Sequence record: NC_008515.1
From: Escherichia phage RB32
DNA length: 64,000 nucleotides
Strand: one strand, 5' to 3'
Under the pieces are notes generated by a model that did not search any database, was not told where the DNA came from, and saw only the letters and a program-made list of their open reading frames with translations. Made by a program: the position numbers and the translations under genes. This document shows, piece by piece, positions 13,424 through 63,545 of the stretch; position 1 is the stretch's first letter; every line of letters starts with the position of its first letter.

Positions 13424-13627
13424 TCACGATTTATCCCCATAGATGTCTCTCATCAATTTAAGCGCTGAGCGTTCTAGTTTCTTTTCTTTCTCAGCACTAA
13501 TCATTGATTTCATCCATTCTTCTGATTCGTTCTGCATTTCTTTATTTGCTTGTTCAACCCAACCATCGTCAATGTACATTGAGTTTGGTCTATTGAACCA
13601 TTCAAACATTTTCTTCAGAACTTTCAT
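13424..13627 (-). CDS. hypothetical small protein
   Basis: 67-aa ORF; its first 21 codons lie inside copy 1 of the 91-bp tandem repeat. Confidence 0.5.
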
Positions 13628-13745
13628 TTGTTTTACCTAAAACAACAGTAGGAGCATCGTCAATGTACATTGAGTTTGGTCTATTGAACCATTCAAACAT
13701 TTTCTTCAGAACTTTCATTTGTTTTACCTAAAACAACAGTAGGAG
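13564..13745. repeat. perfect tandem duplication, 2 x 91 bp
   Basis: 13564..13654 is identical to 13655..13745 (catcgtcaatgtacattgagtttggtctattgaacc...aacagtaggag). Confidence 0.85.
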
Positions 13746-16982: not shown

Positions 16983-17147
16983 TTACTCTTCTTTTTCTTT
17001 AGATTCCTCTTTTTTCTTTTTAGGAATCTGTTCAGGACCTTTATTTACTACAGCGCCTGATGTTGTTCCAGTAGAGATATTTTCAGGACTACCACCTGAA
17101 TCTCCAGCGACCATATCTTCTTTGATAAATTCTTTATATGTTTTCAT
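16983..17147 (-). CDS. small Lys/Glu-rich protein with capsid-targeting-like N-terminus, below ORF-track cutoff
   Basis: 54-codon ORF read by hand: MKTYKEFIKEDMVAGDSGGSPENISTGTTSGAVVNKGPEQIPKKKKEESKEKEE; GAGG 7 nt upstream; 2 nt before gp61 ATG. Confidence 0.4.
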   Translation of the reverse strand: MKTYKEFIKEDMVAGDSGGSPENISTGTTSGAVVNKGPEQIPKKKKEESKEKEE

Positions 17148-17192
17148 ATTAACCTCTATTCATAAAAGCATTAAAAATTTGGTCATCAATAG
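17145..17192. repeat. 48-bp direct repeat, copy A (3' end of the 118-aa gene plus RBS/ATG of the next gene)
   Basis: catattaacctctattcataaaagcattaaaaatttggtcatcaatag; copy B at 17503..17550 differs at one position. Confidence 0.8.
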
Positions 17193-17505
17193 ATGGCGCA
17201 GTAATATTTTCTGCATCATTTAGCAAATCATTAATTTCATCAGATAGCATAACACATGTACCTTTATTTCCTGTAATTGTTACTGCGCAATTACGAACGT
17301 TTTCTTTATTAAATTTTAGGTTAATATTTTCGTAATGAAAATCCTTTAATGCTGAATATATTTTTAAAATAAAATTGTCTTTTACTACAATAAACCCAAC
17401 CTCACTATTAAAACGTGGTTCATGGAAACTGTAATAAACCTTTTCATCTATAAAATCGTATGAAATTTTTTCCATTTTTAAATATGAAAATTCAGAACTA
17501 TACAT
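17149..17505 (-). CDS. hypothetical protein; C-terminal 14 aa shared with the upstream gene
   Basis: 118-aa ORF ending SIDDQIFNAFMNRG; flanked by the two 48-bp repeat copies. Confidence 0.55.
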   Translation of the reverse strand: MYSSEFSYLKMEKISYDFIDEKVYYSFHEPRFNSEVGFIVVKDNFILKIYSALKDFHYENINLKFNKENVRNCAVTITGNKGTCVMLSDEINDLLNDAENITAPSIDDQIFNAFMNRG

Positions 17506-17550
17506 ATTAACCTTTATTCATAAAAGCATTAAAAATTTGGTCATCAATAG
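17503..17550. repeat. 48-bp direct repeat, copy B
   Basis: catattaacctttattcataaaagcattaaaaatttggtcatcaatag. Confidence 0.8.
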
Positions 17551-18127
17551 AAACATTTACTTTAGACTGTTTTTCTGATGGTAATTCATATCCACATATT
17601 ACAATTTTGTGATCAATATCAAAATACACAGAAGCAATATGATTAATGATGTTTTCAGTAAAGTCTAAATCAACATCAATATCTTTTTGACCACAGCCCA
17701 AAGGATAAATAATGCGAGTAATTCGATTATCTTTAACAAATATTCCACCGACATACTCTGTGCTGCGTTTAAAGTCTACACGCCGACGAAATGAAAAATA
17801 TTCAGGCTCTCTATGAGCTCGGCTCATAGGACACAACGAGTAACTAGAATAAGAGATGTCAAATCCTACGCCTTCGATATGAGCCAAAGTGTCATGATTA
17901 AACCAATTATAATCGTACGCCAAATCCATTAGATTATAATATGTAAAAGGCACCGGATTAACATCATTAGTCACAAGCATGTAATTAGCAACTGCTATAA
18001 TTTCATTGTTTTTAACGAATACAAACCGTGATTGATGCGAATGACCTGGACCCGCGTTTTCACGATTAATGATATAACACTGAGACTTTTTATATTTGTA
18101 AGAATCATACTTATACATTTGAAACAT
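17507..18127 (-). CDS. hypothetical protein (61.2-like position)
   Basis: 206-aa ORF ending VSIDDQIFNAFMNKG. Confidence 0.55.
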   Translation of the reverse strand: MFQMYKYDSYKYKKSQCYIINRENAGPGHSHQSRFVFVKNNEIIAVANYMLVTNDVNPVPFTYYNLMDLAYDYNWFNHDTLAHIEGVGFDISYSSYSLCPMSRAHREPEYFSFRRRVDFKRSTEYVGGIFVKDNRITRIIYPLGCGQKDIDVDLDFTENIINHIASVYFDIDHKIVICGYELPSEKQSKVNVSIDDQIFNAFMNKG

Positions 18128-30257: not shown

Positions 30258-30647
30258 TTAACGATTAAAATCAGCCGCAATTGTTTCGGCAACAATTTGA
30301 GCAGCAACAATCAGACGTTCATCTGCATTGCCGCAATAATCATCTTCAAGGCGTTCATGACCATGTGCCATAAGAACCTTAGCACCGGCGTTTAGGGATT
30401 CTGTAGTATGTTTGCGCATTAGTTCAATCCATTTATTACTTACTTCACGATCGATAGCTTCATAATACGCATGACGAGCAGGTGCAGATTTAATTTTGTT
30501 CTGAATAACTTCCATTGCGTTATCAGAAAGAGACAAAACCCATGCGCGACGAATTTTATTTTGGTTTTGTGGATTTGATTCAGAACGCACGTGTTTTGGC
30601 TGAATATCTTTTACATCAACAGTATAATTCACAGTAATTTTAGTCAT
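30258..30647 (-). CDS. rpbA: RNA polymerase-binding protein RpbA
   Basis: 129-aa ORF at the 45.1 position; length equals T4 RpbA. Confidence 0.75.
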
Positions 30648-38313: not shown

Positions 38314-38514
38314 TTAGCTAAACTTTTTGGCACCCTTCCAGCCTTCATACATCATTGCGGCTGATATTAATATTGCTCCTGAGCAACTTGAATATTTGTG
38401 ATTCCAAAACCAGTTTAGAAAAACTTCATCATCAATACCTTGGGCTATCATATTTTCAAAGAACTGACGACGAGCTTCGGCAATTCGCTGCGATAATTTA
38501 GATTCAGGATTCAT
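38314..38514 (-). CDS. hypothetical protein
   Basis: 66-aa ORF. Confidence 0.5.
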   Translation of the reverse strand: MNPESKLSQRIAEARRQFFENMIAQGIDDEVFLNWFWNHKYSSCSGAILISAAMMYEGWKGAKKFS

Positions 38515-42904: not shown

Positions 42905-42927
42905 GTCAGAAAAAGAATTTTGAGTTT
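42905..42927. repeat. 23-bp exact direct repeat (R2) of pin-internal sequence at 42981..43003
   Basis: gtcagaaaaagaattttgagttt present twice. Confidence 0.8.
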
Positions 42928-42929
42928 TT

Positions 42930-43415
42930 TCAAGTATTATAAAACATTTGATGCAATCGCTTATATTGCCGAATCATTTGGTCAGAAAAAGAATTTTGAG
43001 TTTCAAGCCATTCAATATATTCTGCCGCAGCTTGCATCAGGTTACCTTCATAGCCATCGTTATTTTCTTGCGCAGCTAATTTAGCTAATGCGTATGAAAT
43101 ACGTTCACCTTGAAAAGAGGCTTCAGGCTTCTGAACAACTTGATTAGTTCGCTCTACAACTTCTTCAATTTCGCCATTTTCAACGGATTCAGTATTCCAC
43201 AAGCACCAATACGTAATTGGCTTATCATAGATATTAATAATCTTTCCACCAGAAAGTTCAATTTCAATAATTCCAGTATCAGGCTCTATATCATCTTCAC
43301 ATTCTTTTGTAAGTTCACGAACTTTAAAGACAGTACCTGCACTAAGTTCCGGCCAGTAATTACACAGCCCTGTATCAGCACGATTAATTCTAAACCACTT
43401 ATCTACTGTAATCAT
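42930..43415 (-). CDS. pin: protease inhibitor Pin (position and size)
   Basis: ORF track 42930..43433 (TTG-initiated); first ATG gives MITVDKWFRIN..., 161 aa as T4 Pin. Confidence 0.6.
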   Translation of the reverse strand: MITVDKWFRINRADTGLCNYWPELSAGTVFKVRELTKECEDDIEPDTGIIEIELSGGKIINIYDKPITYWCLWNTESVENGEIEEVVERTNQVVQKPEASFQGERISYALAKLAAQENNDGYEGNLMQAAAEYIEWLETQNSFSDQMIRQYKRLHQMFYNT

Positions 43416-45706: not shown

Positions 45707-46708
45707 TTACTTAATTAACTGTAAAGCTTGTTCAAGACGATCAAGACGATTAACGGATTCTTCCCAAATCTTTTTAGCCTGCTCATATTCTTTCTGCGCT
45801 TTATTAGAAATTTCTAGAACTTCTTTATAAGCTTTTTCTAGTGCAATAACTTCTGGACGAATTTCTATCGGTTCAGGTGAATCATCAAGACATTCCATTA
45901 GTTCCTCAAGGGTAGTTTCTTCTTTAGGAGTATTCACAATTTCATCACATTTTTGTTGGTAAATTTCTTTATCAGTAGGTGAATAAGCACATTTCACTTC
46001 ACGAAGGCTAATTATAATTTTATATCCTTCCCAACCACACATATTTTTGAAAGGATATGTATGAATACTTTTTACAGTTTCCATACAGCCCAAAACCGCC
46101 TCTAATTGATAAGTTATAGTGCTAGCAATTGAGAAAAATTTATTAATGCTCTTTTGGTTAGCTTCTGGTGTAAAAAATCCATAATTCACAAAAATAGATA
46201 CTTTATTTTTATCAAGTTCATATTCTTTTATGATAATCATATCAGAAGCCAAAGGATGAATTTGACGATAATCGCCATAACATAATTTAGAAGCTGATTT
46301 TAGAATTTGTCCTTTGAAAAGTCTGAAATTACTAATCCAACGACGAGTAAAAATATTCTCAGGGTCTTCTTTATTATTGAGATGATAAGAATTAACATCA
46401 CCGAACCAATTATATCCTACTACATCTTTAGTTCGTTTAATTTCTTTCCCAAAATTACCAAGAATATCCCGATTAACCAAATATGAAAGAAGACGAGACT
46501 CTTTAAAGGTTTTCTTGATAACATCTTTATCTACACGGCTAGAAATTTTACGAACTTCATGAATAAATTTGCCGGAAGAAACAATACCTGCATCAACACT
46601 ATTGAGCCATTGATTGATAATAGAAAGAACGCTATTTTGGCCAAACATCGGTATAGCTTTATCATCAATAACGCTATTGAATGATTTGATATATTCGTTA
46701 CGAGTCAT
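45707..46708 (-). CDS. uncharacterised protein with C-terminal coiled coil (tandem family member 2)
   Basis: ORF track 45707..46759 runs through the early promoter; start at MTRNEYIKSF (GAGGAG RBS) gives 333 aa. Confidence 0.6.
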   Translation of the reverse strand: MTRNEYIKSFNSVIDDKAIPMFGQNSVLSIINQWLNSVDAGIVSSGKFIHEVRKISSRVDKDVIKKTFKESRLLSYLVNRDILGNFGKEIKRTKDVVGYNWFGDVNSYHLNNKEDPENIFTRRWISNFRLFKGQILKSASKLCYGDYRQIHPLASDMIIIKEYELDKNKVSIFVNYGFFTPEANQKSINKFFSIASTITYQLEAVLGCMETVKSIHTYPFKNMCGWEGYKIIISLREVKCAYSPTDKEIYQQKCDEIVNTPKEETTLEELMECLDDSPEPIEIRPEVIALEKAYKEVLEISNKAQKEYEQAKKIWEESVNRLDRLEQALQLIK

Positions 46709-46766: not shown

Positions 46767-47788
46767 TAGTTCAGTGCATTTAGTGCATTGTTCAGTTTAG
46801 AACGTTGCTTTGTCAGATTTTGAACCCTTGACTGAGCTTGTTCTAACGCCTTTTCAGCTTCTAGCACTTCATTGGTAGCTTTAACGAGTTCATCATCTAC
46901 TGCCTTAAGAGACTTCTCAATCGCGTCAGCGTGCCATTTTTCTACAGGTTTAAAATTTGAATTTTCAGTAGGAAGAAAACTCACTTTATTAAGTTTACAT
47001 GCATCTATATTGCTTGAGCTATACATCCAAAATTTAGGATCGTTTGATAAGTAATTGGATAAATTTAAGTTATCTTGCACTTCCTGCTTTTTCTCTTGCG
47101 GGACTTCGTCCTTTCTCAAAAAATCGTATTTAAATGAAACGATCATATCAAGTTCATATGTTGTTGTATGTTCCCAATTTCGCTCAAAACGAGGTAAAAT
47201 CTTAGATTGAACAGCAGCAACAACATCCATATACTTAAATGCTTCTGTCAGCTGTGATTTAAGACATTCACAAATTGAAAGAGAATTTTTAGTATTAGGC
47301 TTAAAGCTAATTCGTGCAGTTCTATTATTTTCTTTTAACGGTCTTACTTCCATCTGAAGAGTATAACCATCAAATTTCAGATTCTTTAAGTTAATATCAG
47401 AGCCTTTTAATCGACTAGCAGTAGACAAAATTTGCTTTAATTGTCTACGGAACAGAGCAATAAATCTCCATTCAATACGATAATGATTTGGATTGAAAAA
47501 TCCAGATGATAAATCGACCTTACTTTGACCAACGCCTTGAACAATCAAAGGATTTTTATAATCAATAGTTTTACAGAAATCGGTGAGCTGTTCACGAGCA
47601 GTCATTTGTGTAATATACCCTGCTTTACTAAAATTACGCACCCATTCACTGCTATTCGTATACTTAAAGTGATGAATAACACGATTAACTTTATCAGGGT
47701 CTAAATTATTTTGGCACAAAAATGTCATAACATCACGAGTATAACTGGCATTACGAACCATATCTTCAATTTGAGAACGAGTTTTCAT
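46766..47788 (-). CDS. uncharacterised protein with C-terminal coiled coil (tandem family member 3)
   Basis: 340-aa ORF, starts MKTRSQI, ends ...AEKALEQAQSRVQNLTKQRSKLNNALNALN. Confidence 0.6.
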   Translation of the reverse strand: MKTRSQIEDMVRNASYTRDVMTFLCQNNLDPDKVNRVIHHFKYTNSSEWVRNFSKAGYITQMTAREQLTDFCKTIDYKNPLIVQGVGQSKVDLSSGFFNPNHYRIEWRFIALFRRQLKQILSTASRLKGSDINLKNLKFDGYTLQMEVRPLKENNRTARISFKPNTKNSLSICECLKSQLTEAFKYMDVVAAVQSKILPRFERNWEHTTTYELDMIVSFKYDFLRKDEVPQEKKQEVQDNLNLSNYLSNDPKFWMYSSSNIDACKLNKVSFLPTENSNFKPVEKWHADAIEKSLKAVDDELVKATNEVLEAEKALEQAQSRVQNLTKQRSKLNNALNALN

Positions 47789-57029: not shown

Positions 57030-57030
57030 C

Positions 57031-57219
57031 TTAGTCCTTAGTTAAATTTTCTAAATATGTTTCTAAATCATTTTCAGCTTTATCGATAGATTTTACTAAT
57101 TCATAATATGTTTCGGCATCTCCATAATCAGAAGATAATTCAAAAGACAAATCCTTTTCTAAACTAATAATTTCACCAACTAAAAATAATATTTCGTTCT
57201 TTTGTTCGCGAGTAATCAT
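57031..57219 (-). CDS. small acidic helical protein (tk.1 position)
   Basis: 62-aa ORF MITREQKNEILFLVGEIISLEKDL... Confidence 0.5.
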   Translation of the reverse strand: MITREQKNEILFLVGEIISLEKDLSFELSSDYGDAETYYELVKSIDKAENDLETYLENLTKD

Positions 57220-57998: not shown

Positions 57999-58447
57999 TC
58001 AACAATCACAATTTCTAATTTAGAGGAATATGTATCTAAAATCCCCTCAATAATATCCCAGTTCCCTTTACCTATGCCTGCACCAATCCTAGGCATATAG
58101 ATTGTAGGTTTAGTCAGTTTATTTTCACCAAACTCATTTAATTCTAACATACAATTCATTAAAGCGGAATACTCAAAATTTGGCCCTGGTTGAAATTGAG
58201 TATAAAGATTAAAGCAATACGCTTTATGAGTCCTAAAGTATTTTTCATAGACTGAGTAAGAACCGAGTTTAGTTACATCACCACATTCAGTCTGTAATTT
58301 ATCAGCTTCCAAAATTTTAGGGAAAGCTTTGGTTAATTGACCCGCTACACCTGAACCCATAGTATGAAAACAATTGCATCCATGCGCAATATTTTTACCT
58401 TCAGCGAAAAGGGCGACAATATCGCCCTTGATATATTTTACAATCAT
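57980..58447 (-). CDS. macro-domain-like protein (ADP-ribose binding/processing fold)
   Basis: 155-aa ORF; N-terminus IVKYIKGDIVALFAEGKNIAHGCNCFHTMGSGVAGQL resembles macrodomain GD[IV]...N.AN....GGGV pattern. Confidence 0.5.
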   Translation of the reverse strand: MIVKYIKGDIVALFAEGKNIAHGCNCFHTMGSGVAGQLTKAFPKILEADKLQTECGDVTKLGSYSVYEKYFRTHKAYCFNLYTQFQPGPNFEYSALMNCMLELNEFGENKLTKPTIYMPRIGAGIGKGNWDIIEGILDTYSSKLEIVIVDWEPLL

Positions 58448-60402: not shown

Positions 60403-60616
60403 ATTTGACTTCCTCACCAGTACATAAATCGTATTCAACTAAACGAATAGGTTCATGAATGCCATATCCCTGAACAGAAATTTCTGTCGTAGGATAAATT
60501 CCGTCAATATCACCCATATTCCACGCTTCATTAAATTGCTGTTCGCCTGAATTACTAAACCACTCGGCGAAAGCATTTAGAACATCTTTAGAACCTTCAA
60601 TAATTATCTTTGCCAT
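60395..60616 (-). CDS. hypothetical protein
   Basis: 73-aa ORF. Confidence 0.5.
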   Translation of the reverse strand: MAKIIIEGSKDVLNAFAEWFSNSGEQQFNEAWNMGDIDGIYPTTEISVQGYGIHEPIRLVEYDLCTGEEVKYD

Positions 60617-60978
60617 TACAAACTCTCGGTGAAGGTACGAGCGATAACGTCGCGCTGCTGTTCCGGAGTCAGAGAGTTAAAGCGAACTGCATAACCGGAT
60701 ACACGGATGGTCAGCTGCGGATATTTTTCCGGATGCTTAACTGCATCTTCCAGAGTTTCACGACGCAGAACGTTAACGTTCAGGTGTTGACCACCTTCAA
60801 TTTTAACTGTAGGCTGTGGCTCAATTTCAATTTCACGGGCATGCAAACCATAGAAAATTTCTGGGTCTACAAAAGAGTCCTCTTTAAAGGTTTTAGAAAC
60901 GATAATTCGTGCTTGAATACCATCTTCAAAATAAATAGTACCTTTATGTGTGCCTTCAAGAATTTGATATGCTTTCAT
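60616..60978 (-). CDS. autonomous glycyl-radical cofactor (GrcA/YfiD-like)
   Basis: 120-aa ORF; C-terminal ...[56 protein letters not shown] carries the RVSGY glycyl-radical motif; 3' half is GC-rich with host-like codons. Confidence 0.8.
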
Positions 60979-61851: not shown

Positions 61852-62004
61852 TTTATTCTCTCTAGGTTTGGGCCATTCCATGGCGCATGAATTGTCCATT
61901 TCTGTATTTACCCATTACCGCACTTGGGCTCGACCTTATTACAGGTTGGCGGGAATCCCTCACAGAATCATGAGGTCCAGCTTGTTCCCATATTTCTTAT
62001 TTGC

Positions 62005-62478
62005 TTATTTGAATGATTTAACGTACTGAATAGAACCTTTACTATTCACGAAAGCGATTTTACCATTTTTATTATACATTGTAGCAGTACGTTGATAGCC
62101 ATAAGTTTGTTTACCAGATTGATAACCAACTAATGCGAAATTATCTTCACCCATTTTATTCTGTTTAGCGCGAATACGTTCATGACCATGTGCCATAAGA
62201 ACCTTAGCATCACCGGTTGCAATGGATCGACGAGTTTTTTCATCTTCAACTGTATTAACAAAGTCGTCAAATGAATCAAATTTAGCATGAGATTTATTAT
62301 ACAGTTTTCCATCTACTGCATAATTATATCCCTGTACATCCATCTCAACTTCTGTACCATCATCCAGTACAGCAGTGATTTTCTGTCCTTTTTTAAATTT
62401 CAAAAGATCAGTAAAAGATTCAGCAATAATTTGAGAATTAATAGCTGCTTCAGTAATAAATTCTTGATATGTTTTCAT
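62005..62478 (-). CDS. internal protein with capsid-targeting sequence (IP-locus protein)
   Basis: 157-aa ORF starting MKTYQEFITEA, the conserved T4 internal-protein CTS; located just upstream of e as the IP locus. Confidence 0.7.
   Translation of the reverse strand: MKTYQEFITEAAINSQIIAESFTDLLKFKKGQKITAVLDDGTEVEMDVQGYNYAVDGKLYNKSHAKFDSFDDFVNTVEDEKTRRSIATGDAKVLMAHGHERIRAKQNKMGEDNFALVGYQSGKQTYGYQRTATMYNKNGKIAFVNSKGSIQYVKSFK
62177..62209. repeat. 33-bp exact repeat shared with rpbA (30352..30384)
   Basis: cgttcatgaccatgtgccataagaaccttagca occurs in both genes, encoding [11 protein letters not shown] in each. Confidence 0.85.
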
Positions 62479-62538
62479 GTGTATCCTTTAAATGTAAATA
62501 TTTTAATTAATAATTTATCTCTTCAAGTAACTGTGAAT

Positions 62539-62568
62539 ATACTATCACAATTCTAGAAGAAAGTAAAC
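62539..62568 (-). promoter_or_regulatory. early promoter (-35 GTTTAC, -10 TAGTAT)
   Basis: minus strand GTTTACtttcttctagaattgtgaTAGTAT upstream of the IP gene. Confidence 0.4.
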
Positions 62569-62572
62569 AACT

Positions 62573-63545
<973 letters not shown>

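Follow-up and report, generated by a model that had tools for sequence, protein, structure and literature searches.

A short patch in the rpbA gene of phage RB33 very probably copied from the internal-protein gene Ip4

The rpbA and Ip4 loci and their common 33-mer

The 64-kb stretch of DNA analysed here (hereafter, the window), the numbering of which is converted to that of the Enterobacteria phage RB33 record KM607001.1 by adding 119, contains two exact copies of the 33-mer CGTTCATGACCATGTGCCATAAGAACCTTAGCA, at positions 30352-30384 and 62177-62209. Both copies lie in minus-strand genes, annotated in KM607001.1 as rpbA and Ip4, and the translations show a common reading frame and an identical 11-residue peptide. 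The two sites are direct repeats, with 31.8 kb between them. The genes and the features of Ip4 that are relevant here are the following:

30258..30647, minus strand: rpbA, RNA-polymerase-binding protein of 129 aa, proposed recipient of the patch (Pfam PF10789 and the annotation in KM607001.1)
62005..62478, minus strand: Ip4, internal virion protein of 157 aa, proposed donor (Pfam DUF7412, phrog_3155, and the annotation in RB33 and AR1)
62446..62478, minus strand: capsid-targeting sequence MKTYQEFITEA, the N-terminus of Ip4 (translation)
62177..62209, minus strand: proposed source of the patch, at positions 270-302 of Ip4; it encodes (D) plus the 11-residue peptide in a predicted helix, residues 91-102 (family invariance and AF2 model)

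The initial annotation of this DNA had called attention to an exact 33-mer common to rpbA and to an internal-protein gene starting with MKTYQEFITEA, read in the identical frame in two otherwise unrelated proteins. The repeat was recovered at both of the positions that it gave, and the translations agree with it on the frame and on the N-terminus. The search for further copies that it had proposed yielded no more of them in the window, where a third copy was not found even with up to 3 mismatches allowed, along with 186 phage records that carry the 33-mer. Among 100 shuffled sequences, no copies of the 33-mer were detected, that is, none are expected by chance.

RpbA matches the Pfam family PF10789 (Phage_RpbA; E = 1e-43, 148 bits, with a cut-off of 25) and phrog_1285 (E = 3.4e-53), and the gene is flanked, in a conserved position, by genes 45 and 45.2 (gp45, Gp45_2). 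In a passage of PMC8076793 that cites Herendeen et al. (1990), T4 RpbA is stated to bind the core of the host RNA polymerase. T4 RpbA is chain G of the PDB entry 8K58, the title of which names a TEC (‘TIEA-TEC complex’); a search of the literature returned no paper behind 8K58, 8K59 or 8K5A, the sole text match to ‘8K58’ being a paper on SPO1 Gp49 that contains this identifier in its data statement. The protein P0007 (ENA, 177 aa) ends in 32 residues identical to those of RpbA, preceded by an N-terminal region that is unrelated and has Pfam matches of the methyltransferase type; it is encoded on a 1.4-kb contig that is probably a chimeric assembly.

Ip4 is covered over its full length (residues 1-157) by DUF7412 (PF24183; E = 5.7e-96) and matches phrog_3155, ‘internal virion protein’, with E = 6e-102. 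Its N-terminus fits the T4 internal-protein pattern MKTYQEFI.E with an I-x-E protease-type site (MKTYQEFITE/A) and produces short matches to other internal-protein PHROGs; M1, K2, F7, and E10 are nearly invariant across the Ip4 family. The presence of the capsid-targeting sequence suggests that Ip4 is loaded into the phage head and enters the host along with the DNA, and the protein is probably cleaved at the putative I-x-E site.

Ip4 adjoins the lysozyme gene e on the downstream side of the latter, in the gene order nudE - e - Ip4 - vs.8 that is found also in AR1. In RB33, the IP locus (window 61900-63100) holds Ip4 as the single internal-protein gene between e and vs.8, without denV. In some relatives, a query consisting of this locus is matched in two parts that flank an endonuclease V gene, so the content of the locus is polymorphic; T4 presumably carries ipII and ipIII at the site where RB33 has only Ip4. 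The gene vs.6 (window 60616-60978, minus strand) encodes a GrcA/YfiD-like protein annotated as autonomous glycyl radical cofactor.

RpbA and Ip4 are not homologous

We considered deep homology of RpbA to Ip4 and rejected it because RpbA of the T4 type shows no sign of it: comparison of T4-type RpbA with Ip4 gives a BLASTP E-value of 33, alignment of the two families with hhalign yields a probability of 0.6%, and no match to DUF7412 is detectable in T4-type RpbAs even at E ≤ 10. These searches bear out the view that the two proteins are otherwise unrelated. The RpbA of RB33, in contrast to the T4 type, is similar to Ip4 (BLASTP E = 1e-6) and weakly matches the DUF7412 and phrog_3155 profiles (E = 0.02). 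Given that the similarity vanishes without the shared patch, these profile matches are due wholly to it.

Anatomy of the patch

The rpbA gene of RB33 differs from that of T4 at 15 of the 390 nucleotides, and 11 of these 15 differences fall within 21 nt (gene positions 270-290); when 15 differences were placed at random 200000 times, none of the placements reached 11 in 21 nt, the maximum being 8. All 11 clustered differences carry the Ip4 base. At the protein level, they amount to six substitutions, F91V, I92L, T94A, S95H, C96G, and G97H, along with a synonymous change of the K90 codon, whereas the remaining four differences, at positions 102, 318, 336, and 360, leave the protein unchanged. 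Accordingly, the RB33 protein is 95% identical to T4 RpbA (PDB 8K58_G), with all the differences within residues 91-97, and deviates from it at residues 91, 92, 94, 95, 96, and 97 alone. The sequence AKFIMTSCGER occupies the position of the patch in RpbA of T4 (both in the genome and in chain G of 8K58), AR1, and teqhal, and homologues with 78% and 67% identity have AQLVLTRCGER and AKFVLDPSGGTR, respectively, which are T4-like. The limits of the patch, as delineated by these comparisons, are:

30352..30384, minus strand: putative maximal converted tract, in which all 33 nt agree with Ip4; codons A89-R99, at gene positions 264-296 (exact match to 62177-62209; comparison with T4, teqhal, and AR1)
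30358..30378, minus strand: putative minimal converted tract, 21 nt, gene positions 270-290, with 11 substitutions compared to T4 rpbA (all 11 have the Ip4 base)
30379..30384, minus strand: 5' microhomology TGCTAA (gene sense) between ancestral-type rpbA and Ip4 (rpbA of T4, teqhal, and AR1, and Ip4)
30352..30357, minus strand: 3' microhomology TGAACG (gene sense) between ancestral-type rpbA and Ip4 (three-way comparison of rpbA)

The ancestral-type rpbA reads TGCTAAATTTATTATGACTTCATGTGGTGAACG, and Ip4 reads TGCTAAGGTTCTTATGGCACATGGTCATGAACG. The two match at 22 of the 33 positions, with perfect 6-nt ends at equal spacing, which would have been the state before the event. In the window, the pattern TGCTAA-N21-TGAACG occurs only at the rpbA and Ip4 sites, with 0.01 occurrences expected by chance. 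When the ancestral rpbA 33-mer was slid over both strands of the window, Ip4 tied with one other site for the best ectopic match (21/33). Thus, the similarity between rpbA and Ip4 before the event (21-22/33) is at the chance level, yet among the best in the window; because it is equalled at another chance site, this similarity does not by itself explain the choice of Ip4.

Distribution of the patch and direction of the probable transfer

When 141 nt of rpbA, with the patch in the middle, served as the query, 455 phage records matched, among which only RB33 is 100% identical; the next-best record has 93.0% identity, and T4 has 92.3%. The 33-mer itself was found at 187 places in 186 phage records, so RB33 alone has two copies. 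Among the matches listed, the other annotated copies lie under internal-protein or hypothetical genes, including one in T2. The patch type of rpbA is absent from about 450 other Tequatrovirus rpbA genes. A degenerate peptide scan of IMG/VR detected no chimeric rpbA and only two Ip4 genes, the 12-residue form specific to rpbA was not encountered in metagenome contigs, and among 5.8 billion clustered proteins, the only RpbA with this segment is that of RB32/RB33.

On the Ip4 side, G89, D90, L94, M95, A96, G98, H99, R101, and I102 are invariant in 15 members of the family, down to 61% identity; among these 15 are proteins whose names refer to phages of Salmonella, Serratia, and Klebsiella. Among eight Ip4 alleles, four synonymous sites vary within the 33-mer, which indicates constraint on the protein rather than on the nucleotides. 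The patch in rpbA is exactly the resident RB33 haplotype of Ip4, a haplotype that RB33 has in common with RB18 and one IMG/VR contig.

On the RpbA side, we compared six homologues, T4-type and more distant ones, with RB33 set aside. In this set, positions 90-96 and 98 are not invariant and constitute the sole variable part of the C-terminal half, whereas G88, A89, G97, R99, L100, E101, and D102 are invariant. Most of the substitutions in RB33 thus fall in the variable part of RpbA, which suggests that the change is tolerated; G97H, however, affects a residue that is invariant in the homologues compared.

The RpbA outgroups are T4-like, so the state of RB33 rpbA is derived; together with the identity of the segment to the invariant core of the Ip4 family, this points to transfer from Ip4 to rpbA. 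By these comparisons, the segment is native to Ip4 and foreign to rpbA.

An alternative source of the patch would be an unsampled, divergent rpbA allele from which a mosaic segment was acquired by ordinary homologous recombination, the identity to Ip4 being secondary or the legacy of an older transfer. Such a scenario would be in keeping with the mosaicism of T-even genomes and with the other patches, of 6-19 substitutions, that are seen between RB33 and AR1 and are donor-less within the window. We nevertheless regard it as very unlikely: the protein clusters, IMG/VR, and the metagenome contigs contain no such allele beyond that of RB32/RB33, all 33 positions of the patch agree with the Ip4 haplotype resident in RB33, and the patch stops at the microhomologies with Ip4.

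Authenticity of the RB33 sequence

The patch is present in only one record of the phage collection, one in which a unique tandem duplication of 91 nt occurs elsewhere as well, so an artefact of sequencing, assembly, or consensus calling in the RB33 record has to be considered; the initial annotation, too, had named an assembly or chimera artefact as an outcome that would overturn its claim. However, the identical chimeric protein is filed for RB32 in a separate, earlier deposit (ABI94876.1, YP_802994.1), a line of support that consists of protein records rather than DNA. Furthermore, two contigs of 50-200 kb bear the exact RB33 RpbA protein. The RB33 genome was assembled de novo using Velvet (k = 51, 57, and 63); the input consisted of paired 250-bp reads, with a coverage of 3355x (PMC4293622). 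The 33-nt repeat is shorter than the k-mers, so the two loci cannot merge in the assembly graph. The patch is also in frame and ends exactly at the microhomologies. The RB32 protein records combined with the k-mer size make an artefact extremely improbable. RB33 and RB32 are 99.93% similar and come from the same collection (PMC4293622), and therefore represent a single lineage, even though the sequence is confirmed.

The unlikely reading of the shared segment as a functional element

In the initial annotation, gene conversion or a shared functional element had been favoured over convergence, and it was suggested that, were the motif a contact of RpbA with RNA polymerase, the packaged internal protein might act on the same surface of the host after injection. 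The first of these options is borne out by the clustering of the differences, the donor bases, and the microhomologies, whereas the second founders on the absence of the motif from the other rpbA genes. Explaining the 33-mer as a shared element, either an RNA-polymerase-contact peptide or a cis-acting DNA or RNA signal maintained by selection, is highly improbable in our assessment. It is true that both copies of the motif are translated in the same frame, that its core is invariant within the predicted helix of Ip4, and that the coding strand contains AAGG-N6-ATG, which resembles a ribosome-binding site followed by a start codon. However, the canonical T4 RpbA, the one present in the TEC-titled entry (8K58_G), reads AKFIMTSCGER at this position, which leaves the proposed polymerase contact unsupported; the motif is missing from about 450 other rpbA genes; and RpbA positions 90-96 and 98 vary among the homologues. 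Neither does the segment behave as a conserved cis-acting nucleotide element, given that the eight Ip4 alleles differ by four synonymous polymorphisms, which speaks against nucleotide-level constraint, and that no rpbA other than that of RB33 contains it.

The comparison of predicted structures, which the initial annotation had suggested, likewise lends no support to a common structural element. In the AF2 model of Ip4 (pLDDT 73), the motif lies in a helix (residues 91-102, pLDDT about 70-80), whereas in the model of RB33 RpbA, which is poor (pLDDT 50), the patch falls in a low-confidence, non-helical linker (segment 88-109, pLDDT <50). The RpbA model retrieves 8K58_G through sequence only. 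A search of the PDB with the Ip4 model found no significant structural neighbours, the best E-value being 0.47.

A model of the event

Taken together, these observations make it very likely that, in an ancestor of RB32 and RB33, sequence passed from Ip4 to rpbA in one short event, either an ectopic gene conversion or a template switch. To the extent that sequence comparison can establish them, the patch, its donor, the direction of the transfer, the bounds of the tract, and its restriction to one lineage are all established. The molecular route is more conjectural: the sequence fits both template switching and synthesis-dependent strand annealing, and either could have been used.

In the proposed event, the donor would be an Ip4 gene of the same genome type, in direct orientation, whether in the same copy of the genome or in a sister copy. 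A 3' end extending in rpbA would pair with the Ip4 copy at one microhomology, either by a template switch during replication or by strand invasion in the course of break repair, in the recombination-dependent replication of the T4 type. This end would then copy about 21 nt (at least 21 and at most 33) and rejoin rpbA at the second microhomology. As a result, the imperfect direct repeat would become a perfect one, Ip4 would remain unchanged, and the product would be a chimeric RpbA that acquired six substitutions at once, in the most variable loop of a protein that elsewhere is strictly conserved. A crossover between the direct repeats would delete essential genes, so presumably only the non-crossover product would be viable. 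Efficient homologous recombination in T4 is presumed to need far more homology than 6 nt per side. With flanking homology of only 6 nt per side, the event must have been rare.

The six substitutions in RpbA were probably tolerated or neutral rather than selected. The opposite view, namely, that the graft of the conserved core of the Ip4 helix into the hypervariable loop of RpbA is adaptive, altering the seating of RpbA on RNA polymerase or allowing escape from a host factor that recognises RpbA, and that T-even phages recurrently use such ectopic, microhomology-templated patches for multi-residue jumps in the loops of host-takeover proteins, appears distinctly unlikely to us.

Comparison with known systems

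The closest parallel seems to be templated mutagenesis in phage T4: Schultz and Drake, writing in Genetics in 2008, reportedly described templated complex mutations at imperfect direct repeats in this phage. Their laboratory cases are said to involve donors a short way from the mutated position, in or around a single gene. The rpbA patch resembles such mutations in that clustered substitutions would be copied, in one step, from an imperfect repeat that is thereby made perfect, in the same group of phages and with the same machinery. What sets it apart is the distance to the donor, which belongs to an unrelated gene 31.8 kb off, the length of the tract (21-33 nt), and the fixation of the change in a natural isolate.

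Ectopic gene conversion, as in the bacterial tuf genes and in the antigenic variation of pilE/pilS, is similar in being a one-way transfer without crossover that leaves the donor unchanged. Conversion in tuf and pilE/pilS is recurrent and relies on long homology between true paralogues. Here, in contrast, the genes are unrelated, the homology is confined to two 6-nt blocks, and there was apparently only one event.

FoSTeS/MMBIR template switching shares with the rpbA patch the microhomology at both junctions, the short templated replacement, and the outcome, a protein-altering multinucleotide mutation. The template switching studied in yeast involves inverted repeats and nearby templates (PMC8604942), unlike the distant direct repeat in a phage genome that is at issue here. 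As in the shuffling of the IP locus, an Ip gene of the polymorphic locus beside gene e is involved in the case of RB33. Work from the Krisch laboratory is said to have documented modular shuffling of this locus in T-even phages, where variable Ip genes have the capsid-targeting sequence in common. In that process, whole genes are swapped via conserved flanks, whereas here an intact Ip4 only donates a 33-nt patch outside the locus.

Other patches and repeats in the window

We also examined 34 kb of aligned RB33 and AR1 sequence for clustered patches with a donor inside the window. Apart from the rpbA patch, this yielded a single candidate, a local 23-nt repeat, GTCAGAAAAAGAATTTTGAGTTT, which is an exact direct repeat (42905-42927 and 42981-43003) with the copies 76 nt apart. 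It was rejected as a second templated patch because it corresponds to a homology breakpoint: the first copy lies exactly at the RB33/AR1 homology break and looks like the footprint of a mosaic recombination junction.

Six further clusters, each with 10-19 substitutions between RB33 and AR1, are located at 38440-38479, 46631-46656, 47168-47196, 57030-57067, 58343-58364, and 63385-63405; no exact donor of at least 16 nt for any of these was found inside the window or in the AR1 stretch. These clusters may be ordinary mosaic patches or may have been templated by donors elsewhere in the genome; on the broader reading of recurrent patches mentioned above, clustered RB33/AR1 patches could include further templated cases with donors outside the window.

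Two other repeats were observed. A perfect 91-nt tandem duplication (13564-13654 and 13655-13745) spans the mrh/srh junction, taking in the end of the one gene together with the beginning of the other; it is unique to RB33 in the collection, and about 500 other Tequatrovirus records span the query in 220 nt, as expected of a single copy. A 49-nt direct repeat with 98% identity (17145-17193 and 17503-17551) has its copies 358 nt apart.

Implications

The rpbA patch is a fresh instance of an already known type of event; it reveals neither a new system nor a link between an internal protein and RNA polymerase. Its value is that of a clean natural case, in which the donor, the recipient, the direction, the limits of the tract, and the ancestral state can all be read from the sequence. 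For annotation and homology searches, it carries a warning, in that weak matches such as those between RpbA and DUF7412 (E = 0.02) imply neither common ancestry nor shared function. For phage evolution, it indicates that a phage protein can gain six amino-acid changes in one step, by way of some 21 bases from an unrelated gene and microhomologies of 6 bases.
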